Shown here: one piece after another, positions 1 through 27,563 of the stretch
Numbering within the stretch: the stretch's first letter is position 1
How the letters are laid out: each line of letters begins with the position of its first letter
Source of the DNA: Chlamydiota bacterium
Lineage (GTDB): Bacteria; Chlamydiota; Chlamydiia; Chlamydiales; JAJFMA01
Length of the DNA stretch: 41,094 bases
Direction of reading: 5' to 3'
NCBI GenBank assembly: GCA_021772415.1
Contig: JAJFMA010000266.1
Coordinates: 1-41,094, forward strand
Made by a program: the position numbers and the translations under genes
Notes under the pieces: model-generated
Seen by the model: only the letters and a program-made list of their open reading frames with translations
The model's database searches: none
What the model was told of the DNA's origin: nothing

Positions 1-146
1 CGATAAATTCTTCTCTTAATGACATTTTGCTCTTGGGTTCCCACGGCACTTTCAATTCTCCTGTTTAGGCGATGAAAGTGACCATTAAAAGTGTCACCTA
101 TGTCCTGACACAAGTTGTTAACGATGTCATGATACAGAACACTAAG

Positions 147-162
147 ACAGCCCTTCGGGCCT
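147..162. repeat. Small hairpin module ACAGCCCTTCGGGCCT, which also occurs inside repeat copies A and B
   Basis: The same 16-mer occurs at 5197-5212 and about 37843-37858. It forms a GC stem with a TTC(G) loop and lies in the intergenic region downstream of cysS. Confidence 0.6.
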
Positions 163-303
163 TAGAACCAACAACTTAGTACTATCGCTAATTTCGTGAG
201 CTCGGTTGCAGTCATACTATCAAAATAGTATTCACACAACGCGGGTAATAACAAGCCGCCGGGTGGGGCTATCATAAGACGGCCCTGCAGGCCTTAAAAG
301 GGC

Positions 304-1777: not shown

Positions 1778-4528
1778 CTATACCAAAACTGGCTCAGGAG
1801 CGACTTCCCCTACCTGTGCTTGGAGGTCTCGGTAATGGATCTTCCCTGAACCCATGATGGGTATTTCTTCGATTTGCGAGATATCAGAGACCCTGACGAG
1901 GTTGCTAAAACCTGACTTCCTCAGGAGTGCATTGACTTCTCCAACGGAAGTATTGAAGGTCGTAAAAAGCACAACACGTGCCTTCTCGCCTTCACGCTCT
2001 TGGGCTACTACAGCAAGAGCAGGTCTGTCGTCTGCAACGGGCCATTCAGCCTCTTGTGCAGACTCTAGAAGGGCTTCTTCGATACCACCTAGGCTGACCA
2101 TCTCTCCGCCTATCTTCACAAAACGCTTCTGACGGCCGGCAAGAGTGAGGTGTCCTTCGGGGCTTAGGAACCCTAAGTCGCCGGTGACGTACCAGGACTC
2201 TCCCTCAATGTTGAGAAAAGGAGGGGCGATATCAGGATTCAAGTACCCACTAAATATGTTAGGGCCACGCGCTAGGATAAGACCGCGCTCACCTTGCGGC
2301 AGCACTTGATGTGTATCAGGGTGCACCGTACAAAGCTGCACGCCAGGAAGAGGCTTACCGACACCAACATGTTTTTCGTTGGGGAGGTTAAGGGTTAGTA
2401 CAGGAGCACACTCAGTGATTCCGTACCCTTCAAGCACCGTATGTTCTAGATCGAATTTCGCACATAGCGCAAACAGCTCGGGAGGTGCTTTTTCTGCTCC
2501 GGTAACGCAGTAGCGCAGGTGTTCGAGGTCTTCTGGTTTAGAAGCTCTTAACATAGCCTTGAGGAATGTTGGCGCCCCACAAATAATCGAAGCATTCCAG
2601 CGTTTCATGCCACGTGCCAATCCCCGCCCGTTGGTGGGATTAGGGTAGAAAGCCGTTTTGATCCCTGACACCAGGCCGATCAAACTGCTGATGGTAAAAC
2701 CAAAAGCATGGAATGGCGGTAGCACCCCAAAGAGACTGTCGTCCGTGGTAATTTCAAGTGCTTCAAGGACAGAGTGGTGGTTGGACAATATGTTGCGATG
2801 TGTCAAAGGCACCCCTTTAGGCATACCTTCGGTGCCACTAGTAAAGAGCAACACAGCTTGGGAGTCACCGCTCACCTTGTCGAAGTCGAAGGTACGCAAA
2901 ATCTTCTTCGTGCTCCAACGCGAGCGCACAAGAGCGCGCAGCTTGTCTTTGACTGAAAACTCGGAGCGCAGGTCTTCGAGGAGGATAAGTTTATCTTCGA
3001 TACAGTCGAGATCTACGTTTTCGATGCGGTCTAGGAAGGCCCAAGAGCTAAGGACATGCTGAACGCCCGAAAGCTTCGTCACCGATTCTAGGTGCCGCGA
3101 CCCCACGGTCCAGTTCACCATCACAGGTACCTTTCCGGCGAGCTGGCACGCAAGAATACACGCCGACGCAGCGACGGTTGCCGGTAACATGATCCCGATA
3201 TTTCTACCTTCAAGCTTACGCAGGTGCTCTGCAAGAAGCAGCACGCGAAGTTTCAGTGTCGAATAGCTGAGAACACCGGAGCGGTCGTCTGCAACAGCGG
3301 GGCGTTTTCCCATACGTGCGCAGTTGTTGAGGAAGGCCTCAGTAATCGTATTTCCTGGGGCTACCTGCGCACGCATGGTTCCCCCACGTGATCGCATCCA
3401 CGCTTCGGGTGTTGTGTGTAAGTCGTCTTCAGCCACTTCGAATGTTACCTCCTTCGCCGCTATTGCCATCACGCGTTCCACTGTAGTGAGTTCACTAGGT
3501 GGCACGCCTTCAACTTCAAATTGATCCTGTAAAAAAGCCAAAATATCGGCAGCATCCAAAGAATCTAGCCCCAAGTCCGAGGACAGGTGTGTTACGGGGC
3601 TAATATCCTCAGGACTACGCTCAGAAAGCTCGGCCAAAAACTTAACAACTTTATTCTGTACTGACTGGGGGATACGGGACAGGTCCACATCTTGCTCTTT
3701 CTGGCGGTCCGCCTCAATAAGAGGGAGTTCTTGACGCCAGAAGCTATGTGATACTAGGTGTAGCGACTCCCCTGGGGCTTTCTCCTCAGCTAAAGCTGGG
3801 TCTAAGCCGTCGGGGGCGTTGTACCAGTGTTCCAGATATTTGTTGAACTCCAGGCGCGAAGCATTAGCAGGGAACTCAGGTCCTACAGGCACATATTCAA
3901 TGGTCACTTCGCGGCGAGGAGTAAAGAAGATGAGATTCTTTACAGCTATCTTAATGCCCTGCCAAATCGTTGGGAATAGGTAGGGGACCTGCCCCGTTGG
4001 AGCCACGGAAAAGATGCTGCCATAAAGACCTGTGACTTTCACGAGTACTACGTTTGTATCAGGGGCCTTCTGTAGTACAGAATGCACCCCAGATGCTCCG
4101 CCAATCAACTCATAGTTGGAGCGCTTTACCTTTCCGGCGGGATAGATTAAAAAATTCTCACCTTTCCAAAGGCCTTTTTCCACATCACTCAGGGCCTTTT
4201 CGCTCTTTTTGCGTTTCAGGCTATTGGTTGAGTGCTGATGGTTTGGCACAGGGAGGGCATCCATGAAGCTCATGAGCCACTTCACCCCTGGTGTGTAGTA
4301 CATATATTCTACAATCAGAGGCCGGATGGGGAACCTACGATACACACCAATCACCACCAACGAGGGATCGACTAAAATGGTGGGATGGTTGGGTAAAAAG
4401 AGAAGGCCCCCCGGTTTATTGAGGTTCTCAGGGGTGAGTTTATCCAGGCCTTTGAAGCGCACGCGATAACGCAATGACAGCGCAAAATTGATGACGTGAA
4501 GGATCACCATTGCTACAAGTTTCTTCAC
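1778..4528 (-). CDS. aas: Fused lysophospholipid acyltransferase / carrier-protein-like domain / acyl-ACP (AMP-forming) synthetase, Aas-like
   Basis: 916-aa ORF with a GTG start 7 nt after AAGGGAG. The N-terminus is PlsC-like (LPNHPTILVDP, IYPAGKV). The middle carries a phosphopantetheine-attachment-like motif (DLGLDSLDAADIL). The C-terminus is an AMP-binding domain (LLFTSGTEGMPKGV, EGYGITE, YVTGDLG, GRQKRFVKIGGEMVS). Confidence 0.9.
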   Translation of the reverse strand: MKKLVAMVILHVINFALSLRYRVRFKGLDKLTPENLNKPGGLLFLPNHPTILVDPSLVVIGVYRRFPIRPLIVEYMYYTPGVKWLMSFMDALPVPNHQHSTNSLKRKKSEKALSDVEKGLWKGENFLIYPAGKVKRSNYELIGGASGVHSVLQKAPDTNVVLVKVTGLYGSIFSVAPTGQVPYLFPTIWQGIKIAVKNLIFFTPRREVTIEYVPVGPEFPANASRLEFNKYLEHWYNAPDGLDPALAEEKAPGESLHLVSHSFWRQELPLIEADRQKEQDVDLSRIPQSVQNKVVKFLAELSERSPEDISPVTHLSSDLGLDSLDAADILAFLQDQFEVEGVPPSELTTVERVMAIAAKEVTFEVAEDDLHTTPEAWMRSRGGTMRAQVAPGNTITEAFLNNCARMGKRPAVADDRSGVLSYSTLKLRVLLLAEHLRKLEGRNIGIMLPATVAASACILACQLAGKVPVMVNWTVGSRHLESVTKLSGVQHVLSSWAFLDRIENVDLDCIEDKLILLEDLRSEFSVKDKLRALVRSRWSTKKILRTFDFDKVSGDSQAVLLFTSGTEGMPKGVPLTHRNILSNHHSVLEALEITTDDSLFGVLPPFHAFGFTISSLIGLVSGIKTAFYPNPTNGRGLARGMKRWNASIICGAPTFLKAMLRASKPEDLEHLRYCVTGAEKAPPELFALCAKFDLEHTVLEGYGITECAPVLTLNLPNEKHVGVGKPLPGVQLCTVHPDTHQVLPQGERGLILARGPNIFSGYLNPDIAPPFLNIEGESWYVTGDLGFLSPEGHLTLAGRQKRFVKIGGEMVSLGGIEEALLESAQEAEWPVADDRPALAVVAQEREGEKARVVLFTTFNTSVGEVNALLRKSGFSNLVRVSDISQIEEIPIMGSGKIHYRDLQAQVGEVAPEPVLV

Positions 4529-4891: not shown

Positions 4892-4958
4892 AAAGTGTTA
4901 CCGATATTGGTGAACTTTACCGTGCGACATATGTTTCGCGTTAATGTGTCGCCCTTAC

Positions 4959-5247
4959 GAGAGGGTCAGGAAATTGGTGGTGGTGATGAAATGACCATTA
5001 GCCTACATAAATTCGCACATTGTCCGGCGGCCTGAAAGGCCAGCAACCTGCATAGCCCCGGGCGCAGCCCGGGGAAGCTCCAAAATACACTCTGAGCGCT
5101 GTAAGCGCGACACACCCATGCGAAACATGTGTCGCACTTACAGCGCTCAAAAGCTTAATTAGCCTACCTGGGGCTACGCCCCAGGCTATACAGGTTACAG
5201 CCCTTCGGGCCTAAAAAAAGGTGCCGTCGTAATTTCTTTACACTCTC
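4959..5247 (+). repeat. MITE-like structured intergenic repeat, copy A (~289 bp, five local hairpins)
   Basis: It aligns end to end with 37605-37892, with roughly nine-tenths identity by eye. The right terminus atttctttacactctc (5232-5247) is the inverted copy of the family terminus. The left terminus gagagggtcaggaaat (4959-4974) is degenerate. Internal hairpins include 5056-5074, 5094-5148 and 5167-5185. Confidence 0.85.
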
Positions 5248-5255
5248 TGCAGGGG

Positions 5256-5288
5256 TGTCAGGAAACCTCGGAATTAGTTACGACACCT
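5256..5288. repeat. 33-nt module TGTCAGGAAACCTCGGAATTAGTTACGACACCT
   Basis: Its reverse complement occurs at 34978-35010 with one mismatch. Here it sits just outside the right end of copy A. Confidence 0.8.
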
Positions 5289-5406
5289 CTATTTTCTCAT
5301 GAGGCCCGGAGGGTCGCTAAAACTCTGTAGCACGGTGGTAATTTTCAGACGGAGACGAGGCAGGTTTTCGGGAAATCGCGAATGCGTTACAAATGGCAGG
5401 TAAAAC

Positions 5407-7056
5407 ATGCATAAAATGGGGATACCTATGAAGCTATCGGGACAGATTGTCGACATCCATACAAAAGAGATATTCCCTGGAGAGCTTGTTATCGATGACG
5501 GCAAAATCATCGCCATCAACCGCATGGAAGATGCACCTAAGGACCGCTACATCCTTCCTGGCTTCGTAGATGCCCATGTCCATGTTGAGAGCTCGATGCT
5601 TGTGCCTTCGGAATTTGCCCGTATGGCTGTGACACATGGGACTGTGGGAACAGTTTCGGATCCTCACGAGATCGCTAATGTCCTCGGTATTGACGGCATC
5701 CGCTTCATGATTGAAAACGGCAAGCAAGTACCTTTCCATTTCTTTTTTGGAGCCTCGTCGTGTGTACCTGCGACGACCTTCGAGACTGCTGGAGCCAACG
5801 TTGATGTGGAGAATATACGTGCCCTGTTCGAAGAGGATGGCTTGCACTATTTAAGCGAGATGATGAACTACCCCGGAGTTCTCAATAGAGCTCCCGACGT
5901 GATGGAGAAAATTGCACTGGCCCACGATCTAAAAAGGCCCGTCGACGGTCACTCGCCAGGTTTACGTGGTGATGACGCTCAGCGCTACATCGACGCAGGT
6001 ATAGATACCGACCACGAGTGCTTCACTCTCGAAGAAGGGCTGGACAAGGTCTCGCGAGGCATGAAAATACTCATCCGTGAGGGGTCTGCAGCTAGGAATT
6101 TCGAGGCTCTCCAGTCTCTCATTAGCAGCCATCCTAGCGAGGTGATGTTCTGTAGCGACGACAAACACCCGGATGCTTTGGAGTTGGGACACATCAACCT
6201 TCTTGTTCGCGACGCAATACACAAATATGAACATGATCTCTTCGACGTTCTGCGTTGTGCCTGTCTAAACCCGGTAATCCATTACGGGCTTGGTATCGGC
6301 ACACTGCGTGTCGGTGATAGTGCAGATTTCATCGTCGTCAACAATTTAAACGATTTTCATGTCCTCCAGACTTACATCTGTGGGCAACGTGTAGCCAATG
6401 AGGGAACGACTGAGATTCCCTCGGTTCCCGTCACACCAATTAATCAGTTCCATGCCAAGCCCGTTGTCGCTAGCGACTTCATATTGGAAGCTACGGGCAG
6501 CCAAATTCGCGTCATTGAAGCCGAGGAGGGACAGCTCGTCACAAAAGAGGGACACTACCCAGCCAAGATCGAAGATGGGCTGTATGTCTCCGATGTCGAG
6601 CGAGATATCCTCAAACTCACTGTTGTAAACCGCTACAAGCCCACCAAGCCCGCGGTGGCCTTTATCAGGAATTTTGGATTGAAGCGAGGAGCCATCGCCT
6701 CCTGCGTTGCACACGACTCACACAATATCGTCGCTGTGGGAACCTCAGACGCGGAGCTTTCTGCTGCCGTAAACATGGTGATTGGGGGCCAAGGGGGTAT
6801 TGCGGCTACTTGGGGAGGGCAGAGTTCTTACCTGTCTCTACCTGTAGCAGGGATCATGAGCGCTGAAGACGCCTGGGTTGCAGCAAAAAAATACGCTGAA
6901 GTCGACAAGGCAGCAAAAGCTCTAGGCTCGCCTTTGGAAGCACCGTTTATGACACTGTCTTTCATGGCCTTATTAGTCATTCCCTCACTGAAGCTCAGCG
7001 ATCTAGGGCTCTTTGATGGAACAAAGTTTGCATTTACGAGTGTTTCCGTAAGCTAG
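5407..7056 (+). CDS. ade: Adenine deaminase (amidohydrolase superfamily)
   Basis: 549-aa ORF with a metal-binding LPGFVDAHVHVESSML block and the length and C-terminal domain typical of Ade. An alternative start at ATG 5428 has a GGGGA RBS. Confidence 0.92.
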   Translation: MHKMGIPMKLSGQIVDIHTKEIFPGELVIDDGKIIAINRMEDAPKDRYILPGFVDAHVHVESSMLVPSEFARMAVTHGTVGTVSDPHEIANVLGIDGIRFMIENGKQVPFHFFFGASSCVPATTFETAGANVDVENIRALFEEDGLHYLSEMMNYPGVLNRAPDVMEKIALAHDLKRPVDGHSPGLRGDDAQRYIDAGIDTDHECFTLEEGLDKVSRGMKILIREGSAARNFEALQSLISSHPSEVMFCSDDKHPDALELGHINLLVRDAIHKYEHDLFDVLRCACLNPVIHYGLGIGTLRVGDSADFIVVNNLNDFHVLQTYICGQRVANEGTTEIPSVPVTPINQFHAKPVVASDFILEATGSQIRVIEAEEGQLVTKEGHYPAKIEDGLYVSDVERDILKLTVVNRYKPTKPAVAFIRNFGLKRGAIASCVAHDSHNIVAVGTSDAELSAAVNMVIGGQGGIAATWGGQSSYLSLPVAGIMSAEDAWVAAKKYAEVDKAAKALGSPLEAPFMTLSFMALLVIPSLKLSDLGLFDGTKFAFTSVSVS

Positions 7057-7154
7057 GACGCACTTCTGATTCACAGAATAGTCCAGAAACACTCCAAACT
7101 TGATCAATAAATTAATAGATAATATAATTATATTACAAAACGAAAGGTTTTTTA

Positions 7155-8078
7155 ATGAATAAATCAATTATATCTATATACCTAATTATATTTCCATCAT
7201 TAGCATCACCAACCCTTAATAGCGCTCCTGCTACGGACATTTTAGAGGCTGATGCTGTGGCGATAGATGAGTGTGTGGTCAACGACTTTGGTCAAGTTGT
7301 CCGCAATGTTCTACCCCAGCTTGAAGATCAGCTCTATTACCGCATGTGGCACAAGTCTGTTTTACCCGAGGGTGTTGATGCTGCCGAGTATTTAAGCGAG
7401 ACTTTGCCCCATCAAGGAAGTTGTCATGGTCACGCCTTTGCCATTCAAAACGCGTTGTATATGCATCCTGTCATGGACGTTACAACGGCGGTAACGCAGC
7501 AGGCACAAGAGAATGTCACACTTTTCGATGTTATGCGCCTTGTATACACAGAAACCTACACGCATATGGTCCAGTTAGAGGCGCTAGCAGCGGCAGGCGT
7601 TGTGGCCAATCCCGACGGCATCACTTTTGGTCAGATTAAAGAGATTTTGCGCGACGCCTACTACACTCACGTAGACACACTCTTGGGCAGTGCACATAAA
7701 ATTGACATCGTCGAACACGAAGCGGTGCTTCCCGAGAGCCGAGAAGCTTTGGTGGGACAGTTAGTTGATGCACTACAAACAGCCGGAAAGGACAACCAGC
7801 GCATTACAGCTTACATGAACATCATCAGTGGCGACGAGGTGCACTCATCGCTACTACTAACCGCTTGGGCGCCTGAGTACAACCTGGTTGATGCCGACCA
7901 CCCAAGCTTGCTCATTCCTGGACCTAACGCCGAGGGACGCTTCAATGATCTAAAGACCCTCGTCGAAGGGGCTCTAGACTATGCAAAAAACACCTATCTA
8001 CCGGCGTCATCGGAACCCAATTTTCTTCTAATCCAGTTGGTTATCTACGGCGAAAATACAAAAGATGGGCCTGGCTAG
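7155..8078 (+). CDS. Secreted hypothetical protein with a possible papain-like Cys motif
   Basis: 307-aa ORF with a GAAAGG RBS and a very AT-rich 5' region. It has an N-terminal signal-peptide-like segment (MNKSIISIYLIIFPSLASP) and an HQGSCHGHAFAIQNA block (Cys90, codon 7422-7424). Confidence 0.7.
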   Translation: MNKSIISIYLIIFPSLASPTLNSAPATDILEADAVAIDECVVNDFGQVVRNVLPQLEDQLYYRMWHKSVLPEGVDAAEYLSETLPHQGSCHGHAFAIQNALYMHPVMDVTTAVTQQAQENVTLFDVMRLVYTETYTHMVQLEALAAAGVVANPDGITFGQIKEILRDAYYTHVDTLLGSAHKIDIVEHEAVLPESREALVGQLVDALQTAGKDNQRITAYMNIISGDEVHSSLLLTAWAPEYNLVDADHPSLLIPGPNAEGRFNDLKTLVEGALDYAKNTYLPASSEPNFLLIQLVIYGENTKDGPG

Positions 8079-8117
8079 GTGACCAGAGCCCATCGTTCGG
8101 ATATGTGAGAAACTGTT

Positions 8118-8681
8118 TTAGCCAATAAGCTTTCTAGCGTACTCCACTAGAGAAGGCTGGCACTCGCCTCCGTCATCCTCAAGCAGCTGCACAAGGCGTC
8201 GTGTGACTACTGAGAAGGGACTGGTTTCTATGAGGACCTGCCCTGACTGCGTAGTCACTGGAAAACGAAAGCTAGAAAAATAGTATTTTGGAAAGCTTGG
8301 ATGCCAACGGGCGTCTATGTTACGGGCGAATTGAAAGTGATACTCTAAGCATGACCCCACATAGGCTCCACACTGGCTGACAAAGGTCTCCATCTGCTCC
8401 CATGTCGGCTGAGGATTCACGCGGCAAAACTCTTCAAGAAGTGCATCGACGCTGCGGAAGCTTTCGATACTGAAATCGAGCTTTTCTTTAGCAAATTTGG
8501 AACGTTCTGCAACGAACAGACAAGCCATATTTTTGATACCGGCCATCACGAAGCTTTGCTGTTGAATGGATTCGCATGCCACATGATAGGGACTTGCAGA
8601 GGCGAAGGAAGGAACTTCAAAGGTCAGAGGCGCGTTAGGAAGATTAGGATATTTGTGGTTAATGTAACTACCTTCGCTCAT
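8118..8681 (-). CDS. Hypothetical protein
   Basis: 187-aa ORF with an ATG preceded by a GGGGAA RBS. I recognise no motif. Confidence 0.6.
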   Translation of the reverse strand: MSEGSYINHKYPNLPNAPLTFEVPSFASASPYHVACESIQQQSFVMAGIKNMACLFVAERSKFAKEKLDFSIESFRSVDALLEEFCRVNPQPTWEQMETFVSQCGAYVGSCLEYHFQFARNIDARWHPSFPKYYFSSFRFPVTTQSGQVLIETSPFSVVTRRLVQLLEDDGGECQPSLVEYARKLIG

Positions 8682-8951
8682 GCTTAATTCCCCAATAATT
8701 GCCGGTTGTTTTCAAATTAAGGCCAAGATTCTATTCGCGAAGCTTATTTAGGTCAACAAAAGCGTGAATATATTAAGGCCTCGTTAATTAACAAAACAAA
8801 TTACTAATAGCGCTCAACTGATCGGTAAGTGTTTAGCAGAGTGACGCCAATACTAACCCGGTGAACTCCATTCTCGTGATACGATCGCGGTAGGAACGCC
8901 GGTTTCCCGGCGCCCCCCGCACAGATCCGTGATACCCTCTGTAGCTCCTTC

Positions 8952-8966
8952 GAGAGTGTAAAGAAA
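8952..8966 (+). repeat. Solo copy of the repeat-family terminus (GAGAGTGTAAAGAAA)
   Basis: It matches the first 15 nt of the left terminus at 34716 and 37605. The shared left flank TAGCTCC is also seen at 34706. A CGCCGG-TTTC-CCGGCG hairpin lies about 40 bp upstream. Confidence 0.7.
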
Positions 8967-9035
8967 CGCTACCTTGACCCGTTAAAAGTGGGTCAGACCC
9001 TAAGACTTCTCTGTTTTTAGTTCCGTACAGTGCTA

Positions 9036-10313
9036 TCACATGGACCTGTACATAGATCGTGGATCGTGCGCATTTAGATAGGCAAGAGCTGACGCGTAGC
9101 GAGCAACGACGTCGGTCGATGGTTCGTAGATATCTAGAGCCACGTCTGTTAGATCGAAACCTCGTTCGCGCAGAAGTCGCAATGCATCGAGGATATGCTC
9201 ATGACCTGGTAAGTAATGCCCACTTCTATTGGATATATAGAGAAGCTTTCCATTGTCATCGACAGTGAACTCTCCGGCACATACAACGGCTCCACCAGCG
9301 AGGTAACTCGTATGATGGAAGCGTCCATTAACAAACTCGCCAGCGTAGAAAGCTAAATCTGGCCCGATAACCCACGCACCGACACTCCGCCGCGATGTGG
9401 CGTGTGCGGCCCGCATTTTACGTGTACTGAAGGGCTTTCCAGCACGTAAAAAAATCCCTCGTTGGGTTGTGGTGTCCAACATGAAATCGTGCTGACGCTC
9501 GTCTGGAACATACATAACATGCCAGCCGTCAGCGACCCTCCTTTGGTACGCACTCGTTCCAAGCCAGTCTAGAAACGAAACGCCTTCAAGGCCATCAGCC
9601 TCCTTCCACTCAGCGATTGCCTCGTCCATTGCAGCTCCAATAGGGTGGCTAGGAGTGACTGCTTCGAGGAAGAAATTTTCACGTAAGATTTTTCCGTGAG
9701 GTGTGCGTCCCTCGATTTTTTGTTCCTTTAATAGAGACCATCCTCGAGTAATCACTAACATGGAATCAAAGAAGCGACTGAGCTTGCATTCCAAACGCTC
9801 GCGAACATCCAGCCATTCTTCTTTGGGGAGTTTGATTTTACCCTCGCGATGTAACTCTTCCCATCGCTCCTCCCGGGCCTTACGCTTTCTGACACTCATC
9901 TGTAGGCGCTCGATAAACTCCTTCGCAATGTCCTCTGGGTCGCATTTTGAATGGGTGATCTCGAGTCGCGGAGAGTTATGGGGACTACCGAAATCGGATC
10001 CACTGCTGTACCCTTCCGGGAGCACGAATTCAAGCCCAGACGATTCTGCCTCCAATATGTTCTCATCCCCTGGAGCCGTCGTAGCAACGCTAATACAGTC
10101 CCGGGAATGATCAGGAATAACAGAGACACTATTCAATGGAAGTACTGTGGAGCTATTGACTGGTTCCGTTGGTAATGCGCTTGGAGTATCCAAGCTCCTG
10201 CGCGCGGCTAGCGCTACATGTAGTGGAACACATATATTGGAGGGTACGTCCTGGTGGATTTTAGTAATCTTACCAAAACCCATGGGCATGACCATCTTTT
10301 CGATAGATTCCAT
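9036..10313 (-). CDS. Eukaryote-like IQM-type domain protein with an IQ-like motif
   Basis: 425-aa ORF. The C-terminal ~180 aa carry AWVIGPDLAFYAGEFVNGRFHHTSYLAGGAVVCAGEF...ISNRSGHYLPGHEHILDALRLLRERGFDLTDV. As I recall plant and fungal IQM proteins, this matches their conserved core (WIFV..LYVG.KKKG.FQHSSFL.GG...AAGRL....SGHY.PT..NF..F..FL.E..VDLT.V). Confidence 0.75.
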   Translation of the reverse strand: MESIEKMVMPMGFGKITKIHQDVPSNICVPLHVALAARRSLDTPSALPTEPVNSSTVLPLNSVSVIPDHSRDCISVATTAPGDENILEAESSGLEFVLPEGYSSGSDFGSPHNSPRLEITHSKCDPEDIAKEFIERLQMSVRKRKAREERWEELHREGKIKLPKEEWLDVRERLECKLSRFFDSMLVITRGWSLLKEQKIEGRTPHGKILRENFFLEAVTPSHPIGAAMDEAIAEWKEADGLEGVSFLDWLGTSAYQRRVADGWHVMYVPDERQHDFMLDTTTQRGIFLRAGKPFSTRKMRAAHATSRRSVGAWVIGPDLAFYAGEFVNGRFHHTSYLAGGAVVCAGEFTVDDNGKLLYISNRSGHYLPGHEHILDALRLLRERGFDLTDVALDIYEPSTDVVARYASALAYLNAHDPRSMYRSM

Positions 10314-10357
10314 GAAGAGTGCCCTGTATTTTACGTGTCTGCATCAGTACGTACAAT

Positions 10358-10864
10358 TCAGTCCTTCCAACTGGAACGCCGCTTTTGCCGCTCTCTAGCG
10401 TGCTCTTGACGAAGGCGGCGCCTTTCGCCGGCTTCTTCAAAGCGTCGCTTTTCCAGGGAAGTTTCAGGGATCACAGGAACAATTTCGGTAGGTTTGTGGT
10501 CATCGTCGACGGCGACGAATGTGAAGTAGGCCGATACAATGTGTTTCTTTGTGGCGGTAGAATAGTGCTCAGAGACAACCTTGACTCCAACCTCCATGGA
10601 GGAGCGCCAACAGCGGTTGAGGGCTGCTTTAAATATCAGAATATCTCCTCGACCTGCGGGAGCTAGGAAGTGCATGGAATCTACAGACACCGTCACGCAA
10701 AGGCGCTCGCTATGTCTTTCCGCGACAACGAGCGCCACACGATCCGACACCGCCATCACCATGCCTCCAAAGACTGTGCCGTGGGAATTGAGATCGTTCG
10801 GAAACACCTTATAGGTGTGGTCGTCAATAGCGGACTGTTGAACGGGTTTTCCTTGCGCGGCCAT
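10358..10864 (-). CDS. Acyl-CoA thioesterase (hotdog fold, YciA/BFIT-like)
   Basis: It carries the blocks VFPNDLNSHGTVFGGMVMAVSDRVA and VSVDSMHFLAPAGRGDILIFKA. ATG 10864 has an AGGGGGA RBS, and the ORF track extends to GTG 10885. Confidence 0.85.
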   Translation of the reverse strand: MAAQGKPVQQSAIDDHTYKVFPNDLNSHGTVFGGMVMAVSDRVALVVAERHSERLCVTVSVDSMHFLAPAGRGDILIFKAALNRCWRSSMEVGVKVVSEHYSTATKKHIVSAYFTFVAVDDDHKPTEIVPVIPETSLEKRRFEEAGERRRLRQEHARERQKRRSSWKD

Positions 10865-11015
10865 GATGCTTCCCCCTGCGGTCACAATGAACGCACTATA
10901 TCAGCAGATCCACGCAAATGCCAACGACATTATCGAGATTGGACTGGCTTTACTTGACCTAAATCCTTGTTATTCTGTTTAGTCGAGATAAAGAGATTAT
11001 TTTAAAGGTTAGAGC

Positions 11016-11579
11016 ATGGCAATAGGTCTAGGAGCGGCAATACTGGCACAGGCAGCAGGGGCTGCAGCAGCCTATTATGGTGCGACGTCGTCATCACCAC
11101 AGAATAACGTTGGTCAATACAATCCTGAGTATACAACGCAGCCTGCGCACCACAACGAATATGTGTACTCAGAGCCGCAGTATAACGAAGATTCGCCTTA
11201 CGGCTACCAGTACTCCCCTAGCCCACAACAAAGACCAGCTTTCCCACAGCAACCTGTTGCCATGTTGGAATCGTCCGGACATACAGCTCATACCGCTAAC
11301 CACAACGAAGTGCTTTACGACTCGCAGTCTATGCCCGACTTCGGTGAGCATTCGCATGGGGACTCGCAAGCTATTGCGCACGTAGACACGGAATCGTCAG
11401 CTCCCGATTCGTGTACAAAAAGACGCAAGTGTAACAAAGACCGGCCACCATCACCATGCCACCCCTATGGGTACATGTACTACCACTATTGGCCTCGGCA
11501 TACGCCTGGTCAGTATCACTATTTCGAGCGCTTTCCGAGACACTACTCCAAAAACGTTTTTGGCTGCCGCAGGCACTAG
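11016..11579 (+). CDS. Hypothetical low-complexity Tyr/Pro/Gln/His-rich protein with an N-terminal hydrophobic helix
   Basis: 187-aa ORF alone in an intergenic gap. It has an Ala/Gly-rich hydrophobic N-terminus and then YNPEY / YGYQYSPSPQQ / HPYGYMYYHYWPRH tracts. Coding status is uncertain. Confidence 0.45.
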   Translation: MAIGLGAAILAQAAGAAAAYYGATSSSPQNNVGQYNPEYTTQPAHHNEYVYSEPQYNEDSPYGYQYSPSPQQRPAFPQQPVAMLESSGHTAHTANHNEVLYDSQSMPDFGEHSHGDSQAIAHVDTESSAPDSCTKRRKCNKDRPPSPCHPYGYMYYHYWPRHTPGQYHYFERFPRHYSKNVFGCRRH

Positions 11580-11736
11580 AGCCCTAAAATCTTGTTAGCG
11601 AAAAACTTAAAATTCACCACCGAGCTCACAGAGATCACAGAGCGCCATTCATTCGAAGAGCCCAAGAAACTCAAAAAAAATGAATATGTTGGCGTTCCCT
11701 GTCACTTTCTACAGAACTCAGAGCATTTTGAACTTT

Positions 11737-11782
11737 CCCAGGACCGCGTCCTGGGCTATATCTGAGGCCGTGGGGCCGTCGG
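11737..11782. repeat. Hairpin module related to the 3' part of repeats A and B
   Basis: cccaggaccgcgtcctggGCTATAtctgagg followed by ggccgtggggcc parallels cctggggctacgccccagGCTATAcagg followed by agcccttcgggcct in copy A. The stem sequences differ but pairing is kept. It lies downstream of cydB. Confidence 0.55.
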
Positions 11783-11818
11783 ATGAATAGCGCAGCTCGG
11801 TTTCCTCCTTACTCCAAG

Positions 11819-12859
11819 CTAGTAGCTGTGCTTATCGAGCTTTACTTTGCCGCGGAAGATCCAGTAGATACTGACGGTGTATGCGAGCACCATAGGAATC
11901 CCGACAACAGCCATAAGCAATAATATCTTCAGCGTCAGTTCCGACGAAGAGCTATTGAAAATTGTCAAACTCAGCGCCGCGGGATCATTAACAGCGCGAA
12001 GGACTACCGGATAGGTCCCCACACCAAAAAGTGCGAGTAAAAACAAGACACAAAAACACGAAGAGATAAAGGCATGTCCATCGCGGCCCATGTGCACCTC
12101 TCGAGGGATATTTGCAATAGCAAGCATGTTTCCCAAAGCGATAAAAAAGAAAATGGGACGCTCTTTAATTGCGTCAGTCATATGCGGATGGTAAATCAGT
12201 GTGGCCATAGTGGTAGACGCATAGCAGATGATAAAGCAGATGATCGCCGGATTAATCCAATCGCGTAGTCGCTCATGTAGGGGACCCTCGGTTTTCATCA
12301 ACGCATAGATAGCGCCGTGCATCACAAAAAGTGTCACTGTCATCACTCCCACAAGCAGAGCGTAGGGATGGAGCATGTCGACAAATCGTCCGGTGTGCTC
12401 ACCGTAGGCATCGAGTGGAATACCACGAATGATGTTCCCCATGACGACACCGAGACCAAACGCGATAACAAAGCTCGCCACTGAAAAGGCTACATCCCAC
12501 GTCCATCGCCACCAGGCCATAGGTTGCTTGCTGCGAAATTCGATGGCGACGGCACGAAAGATCAAACCCGCAAGGAGAGCCATGATCGGAATGTAGAAGG
12601 CTGAACAAAATGTCGCGTAGACCGCGGGAAAACCAGCAAAAAGTGCTCCACCGGCGGTGACAAGCCATACTTCATTACCATCCCATACTGGCCCAATGCT
12701 ATTGAGCATTAGGCGGCGTTCTTTGTCTCCTTTGACAAAGGGGTGAAGCATACCTACTCCTAAGTCAAAACCATCCAAAATGGCATAACCAGCGAGTAGT
12801 GCTACAAAAGCTGAGAACCAAATGAACTGCAGCTCCGGTAATCCGAAAGGTAGCGTCAT
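11819..12859 (-). CDS. cydB: Cytochrome bd ubiquinol oxidase subunit II
   Basis: 346-aa polytopic membrane protein with a typical CydB N-terminus (WF...A...YA.LDGFDLGVG). It has a 4-bp ATGA overlap with cydA. Confidence 0.93.
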   Translation of the reverse strand: MTLPFGLPELQFIWFSAFVALLAGYAILDGFDLGVGMLHPFVKGDKERRLMLNSIGPVWDGNEVWLVTAGGALFAGFPAVYATFCSAFYIPIMALLAGLIFRAVAIEFRSKQPMAWWRWTWDVAFSVASFVIAFGLGVVMGNIIRGIPLDAYGEHTGRFVDMLHPYALLVGVMTVTLFVMHGAIYALMKTEGPLHERLRDWINPAIICFIICYASTTMATLIYHPHMTDAIKERPIFFFIALGNMLAIANIPREVHMGRDGHAFISSCFCVLFLLALFGVGTYPVVLRAVNDPAALSLTIFNSSSSELTLKILLLMAVVGIPMVLAYTVSIYWIFRGKVKLDKHSY

Positions 12860-14232
12860 CGATCAAGCTCCTCCATGTATTCATCCATATGGTGATATGG
12901 GGTATCACGGTCAAATTTCACAGGACCCGCCTTAATTTTGTGGTCGAGTAAAAAGACAAATAGCGCAAACAACAGCACATACAAAGCCGTGAACATAATG
13001 AGGGACCCTATAATTTCCGGAGATGTCACCGACTGCGAAAGTCCCTCAGAAATCCGCAACAACCCATAAACAATCCAGGGGTAGCGTCCCATTTCCGACG
13101 CCATCCATCCCGCTTGATTGCCGATCTGCGGCAGCAAGACCGACAGCACAAGAAGGCGCAATAGCCAAGGTTTCTTCCATAGCGATTTCTTCCATCCAAA
13201 CCACAATGCAAGCCCCGCCAGAAGGACCATTACCCCCCACATATAGAGCATGAAGTGATAGCTTTGAAAGACCCAACCTACCTTAGGCCAATCTTCTTCT
13301 GGAAAAGCATCTAATCCCGTCACTTCAGCATTGAAGTCATCCCAAGCCAAAAAACTCAAGACCTTGGGAATGGCAACACCATAGTCCACACGCTTCTCTG
13401 CGGTATTTGGAATACCCATTAGATAGATCGGAGCTCCTTCTTGAGTGTCGTAGAGCGCCTCCAAAGCAGCAAGTTTAAGCGGCTGATGCTCGGCCACGAC
13501 CTTGCCGTTGAAATGCCCGGTGATTGCCTGCGCCACAAGTGCCACACAAGCCAGAGCAAGGCCGACTTTCATACAACGATCAGAAAAACGCAGATGCCGC
13601 TTTTTAAGGAAGTAATACGCTGAAACACTAATGACCAAAAACGCTCCAGCAAGCCAACAGCCAAACAAGGTATGCGCCAGCCGCACCATCGACGATGGAT
13701 TGAACACCATGGCCCAAAAATCCGTAATCTCCGCTCGCGAAGCGAGCCCGTCGCTCACAATATGGAAGCCTGCCGGTGTCTGCATCCATGAATTGGCCAC
13801 AACAATCCAAACCGCCGAAAAATGGGCCCCCAACGCCACCATCAGTGTCGCAAAGAAGTGAAATTTTGGGCCTACACGATCCCACCCAAAGAGTAGAATC
13901 GCTAGAAACCCCGATTCAAGAAAAAATGCAAATACCCCTTCCGCTGCCAATGCGCTACCAAAAACATCGCCGACATATCGCGAGTAGTTGGCCCAGTTGG
14001 TGCCAAACTCAAACTCCATCACGATCCCCGTAGCAACCCCGATAGCGAAAGTCAGCGCAAAGATACGGGTCCAGAACTTCGCCATACGCCGGTAGCGGTG
14101 ATCCTTGGTCTTAAGCCACAGGCCTTCAAGGGCTACCATGATGACACCTAGGCCAATACTCAACGGCGGATAAATATAGTGAAACATAATTGTCACAGCA
14201 AACTGTAGGCGGGCTAAGGCTTCAGTATCCAT
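12856..14232 (-). CDS. cydA: Cytochrome bd ubiquinol oxidase subunit I
   Basis: The N-terminus [27 protein letters not shown] matches the conserved CydA start. [19 protein letters not shown] is the conserved C-terminal block. The ORF track extends to TTG 14259, but ATG 14232 is the more likely start. Confidence 0.93.
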
Positions 14233-14403
14233 ACGTCCTTCGGTAAATACGGGGTCCAAAAAGGGTATTACATCTTCATCCCTAATGCTTGTAAAGCAAT
14301 TCTTTATTCCGACAAACAGCGTAAACGATTGTGTAAAAATATCAGCCGCGCTACCCTAGCGCACTTTAGGACTATGTATGTTCCTAAGTACCTGGGGTTC
14401 ATT

Positions 14404-15225
14404 ATGCTCAATACCAAAATCATGGGAATTCTAAACGTCACCCCCGACTCGTGCTACGACGGAGGACGCTTCCTTACCTTTGATCACGCCGTTGCTCACG
14501 CCCTTGAAATGATCGAACAGGGGGCAGACATCCTTGATATAGGAGGCGAATCCACACGCCCAGGAGCCACCCCTGTTGATGTTCAGGAGGAGCTCGACCG
14601 CGTGCTACCGGTACTAGCAGCGATCCGAACTAAGGTTTCGGTACCCATTTCTGTCGACACCATGAAACCCGAAGTGGCCCTGAAATCCGTCGAATTAGGT
14701 GCAGATATTATCAACGACGTGACCGGTTTCCGCAACCCCGCCATGCGCGAGGTGGCAGCAAGCTGCAACGCCGACCTTTGCCTGATGCACATGCTCGGGG
14801 AACCACGCACTATGCAGAGCGACCCTCACTACCCCAATGGTGTTGTCAACGAAGTAATCGAGTGGCTTGAAGCTAGAATCGAGCTCCTGCTTAAAGCCGG
14901 CGTGTCGCAGGAGCGCATTATCGTAGACCCTGGAATAGGCTTTGGTAAAACGGTTGCTCATAATCTAGATATTTTACAGAATCTGCACAGATTTAAAGAG
15001 CTAGGATTTCGAGTACTCATCGGAGTCTCCCGCAAATCTTTCATGATGAAGATTACAGGTAAGGACCGACAGGACTTACTGCCACCTACCCTGGCAGTTA
15101 ACGCTCTGCTGATGATGCAGGGAGCGGATATTCTCCGTGTTCACGACGTGCAAGAGCATAGACTGTGCCGCGAAGTGCTGGGCCCTCTCAAAGAGCCCGT
15201 ATCTTTCGCTACCGCTATAGCGTGA
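14404..15225 (+). CDS. folP: Dihydropteroate synthase
   Basis: It has the pterin-binding blocks GILNVTPDSCYDGG, DIGGESTRPGA, SVDT and INDV, plus DPGIGFGK. ATG 14404 is the likely start, while the ORF track starts at 14329. Confidence 0.9.
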   Translation: MLNTKIMGILNVTPDSCYDGGRFLTFDHAVAHALEMIEQGADILDIGGESTRPGATPVDVQEELDRVLPVLAAIRTKVSVPISVDTMKPEVALKSVELGADIINDVTGFRNPAMREVAASCNADLCLMHMLGEPRTMQSDPHYPNGVVNEVIEWLEARIELLLKAGVSQERIIVDPGIGFGKTVAHNLDILQNLHRFKELGFRVLIGVSRKSFMMKITGKDRQDLLPPTLAVNALLMMQGADILRVHDVQEHRLCREVLGPLKEPVSFATAIA

Positions 15226-15274
15226 GTACCTTAGGAGGGTAACGAGGATTTATTAACGTTGGGATTTTGGACCC

Positions 15275-16078
15275 ATGAACATGTTTCAGTTGCTGATTCC
15301 AGGCCTGGAGATCATCATCATCGCGGTGATGTTCTACTACCTGCTATCATTTTTCTGGAACACGCGCGCTATGGACCTCATCCTGGGGCTTGGAGCTTTA
15401 CTGCTCGTCCTTGCTGCGGTTAACTGGCTAAAACTCCCGGTTCTCCAGCGCATGGTCTTCTATATGGGTAACGTCGCTGTTATAGCCCTGCTGATCATCT
15501 TCCAACCTGAGCTACGTCTTGCTCTTGCGCGACTGAGTGTCAAGGGCAAAAAATTTCGCGAAATCACCGAATTTGACTGCTTCCTCGACAATCTCACGCA
15601 ATCGGTGTATCGCTTAGCGGAAAAGCGCATTGGCGCCCTCGTCGTATTGGAAAATCAGGATTCCCTCGATGAATTCGCCAATAAAGCCGTACGCCTTAAC
15701 GCCGAGTTCACGTCAGAGCTGATTGAGTCGCTTTTTAGCACTACGACGCCATTGCACGACGGCGCAGTAATTTTACGTGGAAACACCGTCGTCTCCGCTG
15801 CTACAATATTACCTTTGTCAGACGAAAGCGCCCAGCTTTCTAAATCGATGGGCACGCGCCATCGCGCGGGTCTGGGCATCAGTGAAATGACCGACGCTCT
15901 GATCATCGTCGTATCAGAGGAATCGGGACGTGTTTCTATAGCTCGCGAAGGCATCATCACGCGTGGTGTTAAACCAGACCGTTTCAAAGGGATTGTGCGC
16001 AGCATCTTCACTCCTCCAAAAATCAATGTGCCCACGCGCTATGGCATAGTGGATAAGGTGAAGCAATGGACCACTTAA
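15275..16078 (+). CDS. cdaA: Membrane-bound diadenylate cyclase (c-di-AMP synthase, DisA_N domain)
   Basis: It has three N-terminal TM helices and then the DAC blocks TPLHDGAVIL, GTRHRAGLGISE and VVSEESGRVSIA. Confidence 0.92.
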   Translation: MNMFQLLIPGLEIIIIAVMFYYLLSFFWNTRAMDLILGLGALLLVLAAVNWLKLPVLQRMVFYMGNVAVIALLIIFQPELRLALARLSVKGKKFREITEFDCFLDNLTQSVYRLAEKRIGALVVLENQDSLDEFANKAVRLNAEFTSELIESLFSTTTPLHDGAVILRGNTVVSAATILPLSDESAQLSKSMGTRHRAGLGISEMTDALIIVVSEESGRVSIAREGIITRGVKPDRFKGIVRSIFTPPKINVPTRYGIVDKVKQWTT

Positions 16079-17307
16079 CCTTCTCCCGCCTGTTTAGAGA
16101 CTGGCGCCGCAAGCTTGTTGCACTGTTGGGCGCAGTAGCGGTGTGGATGTTCGTTAACCAGTCCATCACATCCACAAAGACGGTCGCTAACGTACCCGTG
16201 CGCCTTGTAAGCCTACCTCAAGACCGTACCGTTCAGGGTTTGCTACCCAACGGCATCCTTAACCGCAGGGTGACATTAACACTCACGGGCTCAAAAGACC
16301 TGGTCAAATCACTAGAGGCCAGTGATTTGGAAGTTCTCATTGATGCTTCGGGGCTCCCAGACGAATGGATACTCCAGGTTTCTAAAAAGCACCTCGTTAG
16401 CCTAAACCCTGAAATCGACTTGGCCGCACACATCCAGAGCGTGTCGAACAGCGAATTCGTGGTAAACATGAGCCGCCTTGTGACAGAGAAGATCCCTGTC
16501 ACCATAGCGTCGCCTCGAGGATGGGCACCAGAAGGATACCAGTTCCTAGACATCTGGCCACAAACGCTCTTTCACACCGTTACCGGACCGGAGGAACAGG
16601 TCAGAGCATTGCGAGACAAAGGCTTTCAGCTTGTCTTCGATCTCAACCAGATCACCAAGGCGCAGCTCGATGAGCTCAGAAGCTCCGCTGACACCCTGCA
16701 TGCTGACGAAGTCAATTTTATCGTGCCAGAGAGGTGGAAAAGCGTTGTTGTTCCCTTTGATAGTGAAATGCCGGAAACCATCAATGACGCAAAATCCCCG
16801 GATCTCCACATAAGCTTCCTCCGCAAGGAGCAGCTACCTATGGGCAAGAACCTACCTATACGTGTTTTCTACCCCGTAGAATATGCGGATACCATCAATC
16901 CGCAAACGCACCCGTTAATGACCACCCACGTTGTACAGAATGAACAAGGCGTCTACTACTTGGACTACCCGCTCCTTGTAGGGCAGGTAAGCCGCCTATT
17001 CATCGATGTTGTACGAGACAACATGGAAATCGTCGTCGCTGCCGCCCCACAAACTGAGCGCGATTTTTTACAGTGGAGCGTGGAATTTATCAATCAGAGA
17101 GATCTCGAAGACACTTTCGTGAACCTGCTCATGAATGACCGAAGCGAACAAGTGAACTTAAAAAAGAAAGAAGTGCGCCTACGACGACGCTTCCGCGAGT
17201 ACATGCAAAACCTAAGCCTTTACAAGCAGTCGGGTCAGAAGCTGTTACTCGAAGCCCAGATGAAAAATGACGGCATCAGAATCAAAGACATCTCCGACGC
17301 ATTTTAA
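16066..17307 (+). CDS. cdaR: YbbR-domain protein (CdaA regulator)
   Basis: 413 aa with an N-terminal TM anchor. It overlaps the end of cdaA by 13 bp and occupies the conserved operon-partner position. Its repetitive beta-rich composition fits YbbR repeats. Confidence 0.75.
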   Translation: MDHLTFSRLFRDWRRKLVALLGAVAVWMFVNQSITSTKTVANVPVRLVSLPQDRTVQGLLPNGILNRRVTLTLTGSKDLVKSLEASDLEVLIDASGLPDEWILQVSKKHLVSLNPEIDLAAHIQSVSNSEFVVNMSRLVTEKIPVTIASPRGWAPEGYQFLDIWPQTLFHTVTGPEEQVRALRDKGFQLVFDLNQITKAQLDELRSSADTLHADEVNFIVPERWKSVVVPFDSEMPETINDAKSPDLHISFLRKEQLPMGKNLPIRVFYPVEYADTINPQTHPLMTTHVVQNEQGVYYLDYPLLVGQVSRLFIDVVRDNMEIVVAAAPQTERDFLQWSVEFINQRDLEDTFVNLLMNDRSEQVNLKKKEVRLRRRFREYMQNLSLYKQSGQKLLLEAQMKNDGIRIKDISDAF

Positions 17308-18442: not shown

Positions 18443-19161
18443 TGCCGCACAATCGCTTCTTCTCCGATAGTACACTTCATCAAGATCAGGAAATAATCCT
18501 ATCGCCTCCCGAATCCCGACATATGGTACAGGTCATGCGCCAAAACGTCGGAGACACCGTCGAAGTTGTCAACGGCCACGGACAACTCGCTCAGTGTCAC
18601 ATCGTCAAAACCCCCAAACAAGGCGCCGTACTAAAAATCATAGAACTCGCGTACGAGACTCCTCCGACGTTTCCAGTTATTTTAGCTCAAGCCCTACCGC
18701 GTCCTAACCGCCTAGACACAGTTGTGGAAAAAGGTACAGAACTCGGCATGACCGAGCTGTGGCTCTTCCCTGGAGATCGCAGCGAAAAAAAGCGCGTATC
18801 CGAAACACAAATTAAGCGGATTGAACACCTCATGATCTCCGCTGTCAAACAAAGCGGTAGGCTATACCTCCCCAAACTAAAGATCGCCGCACCCATCAAC
18901 GAGTGGAAACAGCAGCACATCGCTACATTCTTTGGCGAACCCAGCTACTCTGCAGCGAGCTTCCAGCAAATATGGTCCGAGAAGGAACCGGGAAGTGGAG
19001 CCATTTTCGTAGTAGGCCCTGAAGCGGGTTTTAGTGAGGGCGAAGTGTCCTGCTTGCGAGATATTGGAGCACAAGGTGTATGCCTACACCCCAACATCCT
19101 GAGGACTGACACTGCTCCGCTGGTAGCTCTAAGCCTCATCCAACACTGGCGCCTCGGATAG
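18442..19161 (+). CDS. rsmE: 16S rRNA (uracil1498-N3)-methyltransferase
   Basis: 239 aa with an HNRFF N-terminus, a PUA-like region and the C-terminal SPOUT block GPEAGFSEGE...LHPNILRTDTAPLVALS. It overlaps the upstream stop by 1 nt. Confidence 0.88.
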   Translation: MPHNRFFSDSTLHQDQEIILSPPESRHMVQVMRQNVGDTVEVVNGHGQLAQCHIVKTPKQGAVLKIIELAYETPPTFPVILAQALPRPNRLDTVVEKGTELGMTELWLFPGDRSEKKRVSETQIKRIEHLMISAVKQSGRLYLPKLKIAAPINEWKQQHIATFFGEPSYSAASFQQIWSEKEPGSGAIFVVGPEAGFSEGEVSCLRDIGAQGVCLHPNILRTDTAPLVALSLIQHWRLG

Positions 19162-19163
19162 AT

Positions 19164-19532: not shown

Positions 19533-19674
19533 TATAGAACATGTTTTGTTTAGTTATTAAATAAAATACGTCGATAGTTTACAACATATTTATTTATATA
19601 ATATTAAGAGTTAACTAACCTCTCTTTAAGATTGTACATTTCACGGGTATACAATAAAAACATTGAGCCCTGTT

Positions 19675-27530: not shown

Positions 27531-27563
27531 TCCCTGTAAGGGCGAAAATAAAAAATATTTTTC

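Follow-up and report, generated by a model that had tools for sequence, protein, structure and literature searches.

What is the nature of two closely similar, hairpin-rich segments of about 289 bp that occupy separate intergenic sites in the genome of an uncultured environmental member of the Chlamydiota? The stretch of DNA analysed here (the window) is an entire contig of 41,094 bp (JAJFMA010000266.1), and the two segments are located at positions 4959-5247 (copy A) and 37605-37892 (copy B). The best explanation for the data described below is that A and B are members of a high-copy, selfish, non-coding foldback mosaic family, delimited by terminal inverted repeats, that has spread through the intergenic regions of this environmental chlamydia. 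An alignment of A and B is collinear over 290 columns, with 91.7% identity and one 1-nt indel, in full agreement with a reading of the same DNA from its sequence alone (the sequence-only reading), which had described two collinear copies of about 289 bp that differ by scattered substitutions and one small indel. Homology between the copies begins at (C)GAGAG and ends with the final C of ..CTC; B is nearer than A to the family consensus. Both copies are flanked by divergently oriented gene pairs, A by the genes for an aas-like acyl-ACP synthetase and adenine deaminase, and B by uvrA and ssb, and gene annotation supports the earlier assignment of these neighbors. Coding capacity had been denied to both copies, and the longest open reading frame (ORF) within any of the elements indeed measures 64 aa. 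Since independently assembled Logan contigs cross the junctions between flank and element without a mismatch, the copies are not an artefact of the assembly.

Each copy had been described as a succession of five local hairpins. All five are present in A and B, but they are not independent of each other: the copies are symmetric foldbacks in which two inverted two-hairpin units are arranged around a central hairpin. In both copies, hairpin 1 reads GGCC-TGAAA-GGCC and hairpin 5 GCCC-TTC-GGGC, while hairpins 2 and 4 each possess an 8-bp stem, closed by a GCA and a TAC loop, respectively. Hairpins 1 and 2 correspond approximately to the reverse complement of hairpins 4 and 5 (71% over about 175-178 nt), and the self-complementary stretch covers positions 5036-5205 in A and 37682-37851 in B. 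The central hairpin of B (37739-37795) has 23 perfect pairs and an 11-nt loop; that of A (5093-5149) has the same stem length and loop with one C/A mismatch (22/23 pairs), and its 22-nt arms were recovered with 95% identity by a repeat search. Read from left to right, an A/B-type element thus consists of a terminus, a spacer, an inverted unit, the central hairpin with its 23-bp stem, a direct unit, a second spacer and a second terminus. When compared with shuffled controls, the folding z-score of the element is -8.0 as DNA and -9.7 as RNA.

The termini of these elements are 16 nt long (GAGAGTGTAAAGAAAT) and are inverted with respect to each other. With up to three mismatches allowed, this motif is matched nine times in the window, compared with 0.48 matches expected, and none of 100 shuffled sequences reached nine. 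Exact or near-exact matches were found at the left end of B (37605-37620, plus strand; exact), the right end of B (37877-37892, minus strand; one mismatch), the right end of A (5232-5247, minus strand; exact), both ends of an element at 19675-19883 (C-type), the left end of an element at 34716-35010 (D-type), and at 8952. Two further matches, at 27434 and at the left end of A (4959-4974, plus strand; GAGAGGGTCAGGAAAT), are degenerate, with three mismatches each. Hence, the notion that inverted 16-bp termini bound both copies stands overall but has to be qualified for the degenerate left end of A; other copies' contigs diverge exactly at its first position, 4959. The sequence-only reading had also assigned this terminus to the two other elements: it delimits the C-type element at both ends and the D-type element at its left end only, the right end of the latter carrying a variant terminus (TGTCAGGAAACC). 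Consequently, three different interiors or more (A/B, C, and the left part of D), each of them present in high copy number, have one and the same terminus as their boundary. Two properties by which miniature inverted-repeat transposable elements (MITEs) are recognised are apparent here, as A, B and C share terminal inverted repeats at both of their ends (0-3 mismatches), and the elements are short (209-295 bp) and non-coding.

To assess the copy number of the family, we relied on the depth of Logan contigs from four biofilm metagenome runs (X1-X4; one of these runs is SRR15505512). The flanks of B have depths of 3.4, 5.5, 3.0 and 2.5 in X1 to X4. Across the runs, depth rises to 22-255 next to the B terminus, to 360-1500 at hairpin 1, to 43-365 at the central hairpin, and to 136-550 at hairpins 4 and 5; copy A displays the same pattern (60-1000 compared to 3-5 in its flanks). 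Inside the elements, whose modules reach depths of 80-1500, depth is about 20- to 270-fold that of the flanks. The central hairpin of B is part of a core, represented by one contig that matches positions 37727-37857 with at most two differences, whose depth (44.9, 77.8, 41 and 34.2) amounts to 13.2, 14.1, 13.7 and 13.7 times that of the flank in the four runs. Such a constant ratio over four samples is what a single genome with identical copies would yield. Contigs of X2 leave the B sequence at position 37605 (14 contigs) or 37603 (six contigs), each of them continuing into a different flank, and agreement among these flanks is low. A and B are hence not the only copies, as these at least 20 distinct left flanks and the depth values attest, and the main condition under which the sequence-only reading would have failed does not apply. 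Per genome equivalent there are about 14 near-identical A/B cores (110-130 nt) and on the order of 100 related module copies. Over the window as a whole, depth has a baseline of 3-6, and every one of its four largest spikes (58-188) coincides with a bin that contains elements. A few other bins are modestly elevated (6-14); some of these hold remnants or half-elements (1-667, 8672-9338, 11340-12006), and others conserved coding sequence (cysS, folP). Depth also rises locally in coding regions (668-1334 within cysS; 13988-14011), for instance to 79.7 at position 1000, where six contigs match; these peaks most likely represent conserved gene segments from other organisms of the metagenomes and not repeats.

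Individual contigs from these runs join modules that are far apart in the window (5073 to 19795, 5219 to 19850, 5316 to 8944, 27489 to 34790, and 34813 to 37610), and several further joins connect opposite strands. The differing orders of these joins indicate that, at other sites of the genome, modules of the A, C and D types have recombined or lie nested in one another, which fits the roughly tenfold spread in module copy number. The family is thus a true mosaic.

The other representatives of the family in the window illustrate this mosaic character further. The C-type element (19664-19897; termini at 19675-19690 on the plus strand and 19868-19883 on the minus strand, with one mismatch each) contains a single long hairpin (19742-19812) and no unit of the type seen in A and B; its depth is 100-580 compared to 2.5-3.4 in the flanks, with boundaries at 19664/19675 and 19883/19897. 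A strongly AT-rich stretch (19533-19660) lies between this element and the start of a 122-aa ORF (19164-19532, minus strand), and the repeats are GC-rich by contrast. The D-type foldback (34716-35010) follows the same plan as A and B but differs from them in sequence: its exact left terminus is followed by about 35 nt, TCATGA, a unit on the minus strand (34767-34812), a central hairpin (34833-34897), a unit on the plus strand (34919-34964), TCATGA, again about 35 nt, and the variant terminus. Only its left arm (34715-34815) is highly repeated (depth 150-540; flanks about 3-5), its center and right arm being low-copy. The variant terminus also opens a half-element that abuts A on its right side (5250-5330, plus strand; depth about 17-25 compared to 3-5 in the flank); this half-element consists of the terminus (GGGGTGTCAGGAAAC), a spacer, TCATGA and a hairpin, and 57 nt of it are 89% complementary to 34954-35010, the right arm of D. 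At its left end, A is abutted by a fragment (4922-4958, minus strand) of the central-hairpin arm of another copy, with 84-86% identity to the inverse of 5101-5137 and 37747-37783. Solitary or degenerate termini had been proposed at 8952 and 27434, and both are borne out, with one and three mismatches, respectively. The former is part of a half-element (8934-8995, plus strand, in the bin of raised depth at 8672-9338) that is composed of an outer motif, the terminus and one hairpin; the latter begins a truncated arm of the D-left type (27434-27490, plus strand), in which the degenerate terminus is followed by a spacer and TTTTCATGAGGCCCG, and position 27489 is the one joined by a contig to 34790. 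Two further remnants are devoid of a nearby or recognisable terminus: a solo unit with adjacent spacer at 11710-11782 (plus strand; 83% identity to the inverse of 37698-37749), and decayed sequences at 140-299 (plus strand) with a GCCC-TTC-GGGC hairpin (147-167) and a partial unit (259-294), where position 294 is a point of divergence for nine contigs. A further repeated module of 45 nt (8885-8929), with the hairpin CGCCGG-TTTC-CCGGCG, immediately precedes the half-element at 8934-8995; contigs of X2 part from it before 8885 in five cases and after 8929/8930 in seven.

The sequence-only reading had left the choice between a non-autonomous MITE-like family and a mosaic of the type formed by repetitive extragenic palindromic (REP) sequences and bacterial interspersed mosaic elements (BIMEs). 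Many copies, sharp ends and shuffled modules uphold this description of a putatively mobile family. What fits best is a hybrid of the two, in which a MITE-like outer layer encloses an interior of REP/BIME-like hairpins. The MITE-like layer is indicated by terminal inverted repeats that bound at least three interiors, by sharp ends, by the approximately 14 near-identical cores, and by decayed and half copies. MITEs with dyad symmetry (Correia, ERIC, RUP, QMITEs, and the Rickettsia palindromic elements) are likewise non-coding intergenic sequences of 100-300 bp with terminal inverted repeats, which fold into long hairpins, are present in copy numbers from tens to hundreds, fall into subfamilies with different interiors, and include decayed and half copies. 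Such elements reside in Neisseria (Correia), enterobacteria (ERIC), the pneumococcus (RUP), Coxiella (QMITEs) and Rickettsia, and are common in host-restricted bacteria. Unlike them, the chlamydial family has neither an established target-site duplication nor an established parent insertion sequence (IS), and its interior consists of separable hairpin modules that also occur in other phyla and without enclosing terminal repeats, and whose copy numbers differ about tenfold.

If the family were instead of the REP/BIME/REPIN type, its GC-rich hairpin units would replicate through a Y1/HUH transposase resembling the REP-associated tyrosine transposases (RAYTs), or through recombination or gene conversion, and would be assembled into mosaics with alternating orientations, of which the terminus would be a mere module. 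We regard this as rather unlikely, although a good deal of the data can be read in its favor. The copy numbers of the modules are independent of each other (about 120- to 270-fold over the flank for hairpin 1, about 17- to 37-fold for the center), modules are reshuffled among other copies, solo units without termini occur, and the units of A, B and D are inverted around a spacer as they are in REPINs and BIMEs. With the REP/BIME/REPIN-RAYT systems of proteobacteria, the family shares high-copy, GC-rich intergenic hairpins, inverted doublets around a spacer, a fold into long hairpins, and mosaicism. The chlamydial elements, however, have a terminal inverted repeat of 16 nt that is separate from the hairpins; three different interiors have it, inverted, at both of their ends, and it is precisely at this repeat that copies part. 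We know of no REP/BIME system with terminal repeats of this kind. The collinearity of A and B over 289 nt, and the more than 110 nt of core that are shared by about 14 copies, point to the copying of whole units. Moreover, the sequences of the chlamydial units are unrelated to known REPs, no conserved GTAG-type tetranucleotide adjoins the hairpins across the units when these are read directly, and the window contains no RAYT gene.

The interior units themselves resemble an annotated family of RNAs. No match was found in the window when Rfam was searched at gathering thresholds, but each 46-47-nt half of the foldbacks resembles Acido-Lenti-1 (RF01687) at 21-29 bits, compared to a gathering score of 37; the best scores in the window are 28.8, 26.4, 23, 21.8 and 21.3 bits. 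We constructed a covariance model solely from 40 published seeds (PMC2864571, supplement) and ran it unfiltered; in a MAFFT alignment of the window units with published seeds, units with 3-nt loops had been placed out of register. This model detected six units with E-values between 8e-7 and 3e-4: 34767-34812 (minus), 37674-37720 (minus), 5167-5212 (plus), 37813-37858 (plus), 259-294 (plus) and 5028-5074 (minus). Two weaker ones were found at 11737-11763 (plus; 15.2 bits) and 34919-34964 (plus), and all eight are intergenic. In A, hairpins 1 and 2 form the unit at 5028-5074 (RF01687, 21.8 bits; seed-built model, 22.8 bits, E 3e-4), and hairpins 4 and 5 that at 5167-5212 (21.3 bits; 24.4 bits, E 1.2e-4); in B, the plus-strand unit scores 24.4 bits with the seed-built model. 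The minus-strand unit of B contains a compensated change, the pair 37705/37717 being A-T in B and C-G in A and most other copies. By direct reading, the P1 stems covary between the units (CCTGGGGC, CCCCGGGC, CCCAGGGC, CCCCACCC) with retention of the CC...GG-CTA frame. Like Acido-Lenti-1, the units of the window possess an 8-bp P1 stem of the form CC...GG, the sequence CUA, a linker of 10-14 nt, a P2 stem of 4-5 bp and a UUC-type loop; unlike it, they score below the gathering threshold, have a linker that is 2 nt longer in A and B, stem from a phylum outside the described range of the family, and occur as inverted pairs within elements bounded by terminal repeats.

Relatives of the interior modules were found in other phyla as well. 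A 22-mer of the central hairpin had only two distant matches among species-representative genomes, one in a metagenome-assembled genome (MAG) of Granulicella (L001) and one in a Prevotellaceae MAG (L002). In L001, the central-hairpin arm (GTGTCGCGCTTACAGCGCTCA) is followed by an Acido-Lenti-1 unit of 45.7 bits, and an adjacent GTGTCGC.CTTACAGCGCTCA module is present too. A 21-mer of hairpin 1 matched eight loci in a metagenome collection, only two of which are related (L004 and L009, JGI Ga0256404); in these, hairpins of the same types form arrays, in which one unit reaches 38 bits. The same 21-mer matched six unrelated loci without an Acido-Lenti-1 match in species-representative genomes, and a pattern scan for the Lentisphaera-type P1 gave no matches. 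The loci that were found via words from the element modules (L001, L004 and L009) exceed the RF01687 gathering threshold, and the terminus is absent from them and from L002. In L002, positions 3460-3600 comprise a hairpin array whose loops read CTGTAAG/CCGTAGG (GGGCTGTAAGCCC, GGTAGTCTGTAAGGGCTACC, GCACCGTAGGTGC) and which ends in an exact copy of the central-hairpin arm of the window (ATGTGTCGCACTTACAGCGCTCA). This suggests that the arm motif GTGTCG..CTTACAG..CTC is itself a widespread module. In L004 (300-560) and L009 (1900-2100), a second kind of tandem repeat of about 45-50 nt (GGAGCATGC.../ATACA(A/G)AG...) adjoins the hairpin array.

Acido-Lenti-1 was described by Weinberg et al. (2010; PMC2864571), who rated it as a likely RNA with covariation, assigned no function to it, and noted occasional proximity to group II introns; it is annotated, for Acidobacteria and Lentisphaerae, as a small RNA (sRNA) gene of unknown function and not as a repeat, and a 2026 preprint still considers it a possible regulator (bioRxiv 10.64898/2026.02.09.704811). 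About 55 of the seed copies stem from Lentisphaera araneosa, where many are organised in tandem or in arrays of alternating orientation, and others from Koribacter, Rhodopirellula, Geobacter and metagenomes (PMC2864571). The dense two-orientation arrays of L. araneosa, together with the terminus-free arrays of L004 and L009, are a further point that the REP/REPIN explanation can claim for itself. A spacing of about 92-106 nt between inverted pairs, seemingly shared between the window and Lentisphaera, was dropped from consideration, since further units intervene in Lentisphaera and a long central hairpin is missing there.

Might the units then be functional RNAs, either sRNAs of the Acido-Lenti-1 type or cis-acting elements of the divergent neighbors, that were duplicated because they are useful? 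The significant matches within the window (E 8e-7 to 3e-4), the single compensated stem pair, the very stable predicted fold (z -9.7 as RNA) and the published rating of the motif as a likely RNA with covariation (PMC2864571) are in line with such a function, yet we judge it improbable. A single element has units on each of its two strands, and relative to the adjacent genes the units take every orientation, so that a given transcript can read only one unit of a pair in the sense direction. Some 100 copies with shuffled modules are not what one expects of sRNA genes, scans for promoter and terminator consensus sequences found none inside the elements, all matches in the window stay below the Rfam gathering score, and compensation in hairpins is equally expected if these act at the level of DNA. 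The sequence-only reading would have been weakened by an annotated RNA family among the elements, and this is partly the case through the sub-threshold kinship with RF01687. In our reading, this kinship says something about RF01687 and does not refute the interpretation of the elements as repeats.

It is a serious possibility, if not quite a probable one, that Acido-Lenti-1 is not an sRNA gene but the hairpin-pair core of a repetitive and probably mobile mosaic DNA that spans phyla (the Planctomycetes-Verrucomicrobia-Chlamydiae superphylum, Acidobacteriota, Bacteroidota), and that in this chlamydial lineage it became enclosed by terminal inverted repeats and was then amplified in the form of foldback MITEs. 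Repeats of such a general type are familiar; the link to RF01687 suggests that an orphan "sRNA" could be a repeat module. Acido-Lenti-1 has remained without a function for 16 years and is still annotated as a regulatory non-coding RNA, and its explanation as a repeat module is testable. If this explanation is true, annotations as regulatory non-coding RNA need to be reinterpreted.

Outside the terminus, at a distance of 3-4 variable nucleotides, most copies carry a semi-conserved GC-rich motif, (T/G)AGC(C/T)CC or GTCGCCCC, which is inverted at the two ends. It was seen in the sequences of the window, in loose-end consensuses of the contigs of other copies, and in the translation of a protein in the NCBI collection (P0121; 86 aa, from a contig of 9403 bp), which was the sole match of a search with the 64-aa pseudo-ORF. 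P0121 is a spurious ORF that runs through another A/B copy and exits it at the left end; its sequence ...NFFTLS/KEL... implies a flank of TAGCTCCTTC/GAGAGTGT with the same outer motif as at 8942. The outer motif may mean that the terminal repeat in fact extends over about 29 nt and includes a variable spacer. Alternatively, a 3-bp duplication may have accompanied insertion into the loops of short GC-rich hairpins (e.g., the P2 hairpin GCCC-TTC-GGGC). The flanking triplets are GTC/GTC in B (3/3), TAC/TGC in A (2/3) and GTT/GAA in C (1/3), the outer motif obscuring the true end; over A, B and C, six of nine flanking bases match as direct repeats compared to three of nine as inverted ones, which is suggestive only.

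Remnants of a known IS or of another annotated element, such as solo ends or internal deletion derivatives, would also be expected to leave half-elements and degenerate termini like those at 8952, 27434 and 5250. The GAG ends and the possible 3-bp duplication recall some subgroups of the IS5 family, a resemblance that we take as a lead and not as a test. A descent from such an element is very improbable nonetheless. A blastn search of a plasmid collection gave no match, the words of the terminus were not found in the literature in a relevant context, there is no coding remnant inside the elements, and a chimeric query of 17 pseudo-ORFs retrieved no protein. The at least 81 matches of the terminus 16-mer in species-representative genomes are scattered, single, chance-like and uninformative.

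We consider it slightly favored that the MITE-like units are mobilised in trans by a transposase that recognises their termini. Such an enzyme would be encoded elsewhere in the genome, would recognise the ends of 16 nt (possibly about 29 nt), and would move the units now or have done so recently. The units would tend to land in or beside the GC-rich hairpins of earlier copies, leaving mosaics and half-elements behind, and the hairpin modules would be older, REP-like sequences, common to Lentisphaerae, Acidobacteria and others, that became captured between the ends. Several observations weigh against this scheme. Searches of all ORFs of at least 100 aa in the window with Pfam and NCBIfam models found no transposase, integrase or reverse transcriptase; with respect to the transposase, this had been anticipated by the sequence-only reading. 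Acido-Lenti-1-like units are also present without a terminus (at 11737 and 259), and in other phyla they form terminus-free arrays; taken together with the roughly tenfold variation of module copy number within one element, this implies that the interior modules, at least, do not depend on the termini for their spread or persistence. The semi-conserved motif outside the terminus renders the true end of the element ambiguous, and a perfect target-site duplication is seen in B alone. Furthermore, no allele with an empty site was found in the four metagenome runs, in which no contig skips A or B, and the depth ratios assume that similar contigs derive from this organism. Compatible with the scheme, by contrast, is that no copy is present at the ssb-uvrA locus of a related 3.9-Mb chlamydial genome (L014), which is syntenic but distant, with a spacer that cannot be aligned. 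The other related chlamydial loci among L011-L015 are free of copies too.

With about six insertions or remnants in 41 kb, some of them within 70-160 nt of gene starts, the window documents a dense repeat family of an environmental chlamydia that was probably active until recently. No MITE-like family from Chlamydiae turned up in the literature. Families of this kind break short-read assemblies, as is evident from Logan contigs that end at every copy; they also cause false protein predictions, P0121 being one, and have the potential to rewire promoters. A Logan contig retrieved through ssb ends before it reaches copy B. The family could also lead to the enzyme that mobilises it, be it a transposase specific for the ends or one specific for hairpins.

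The gene content of the window is compatible with a chlamydial host, as it includes cydAB, a DisA-type cyclase together with YbbR, and two-component proteins, and matches the NCBIfam models PRK06334, PRK00635 and PRK06293, which we take to be chlamydia-derived. The four biofilm metagenomes were the only runs that contained this organism, with no RNA run among them, and it is absent from the species-representative genomes, where a search based on UvrA likewise gave no match. The closest named relatives of its UvrA protein belong to Chlamydiales, Parachlamydiaceae and Protochlamydia (55-64% identity); the top match, with 64% identity, is the UvrA protein of L014, with which the window has the STAS-DHH-ssb / uvrA gene order in common. 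This UvrA (35051-37522, minus strand) is a short form of 820-823 aa that aligns over its full length only to a clade of MAG proteins of 800-836 aa, and over about 64% of the length to the canonical UvrA of 930 aa. The precomputed list of its Pfam domains includes PF17760 and lacks PF17755, the DNA-binding/insertion domain of UvrA. Three consecutive ORFs on the plus strand (25771-27375, 27629-30838 and 30941-33640; 534, 1069 and 899 aa) have no Pfam match at E<=1e-5 and may represent lineage-specific chlamydial proteins.

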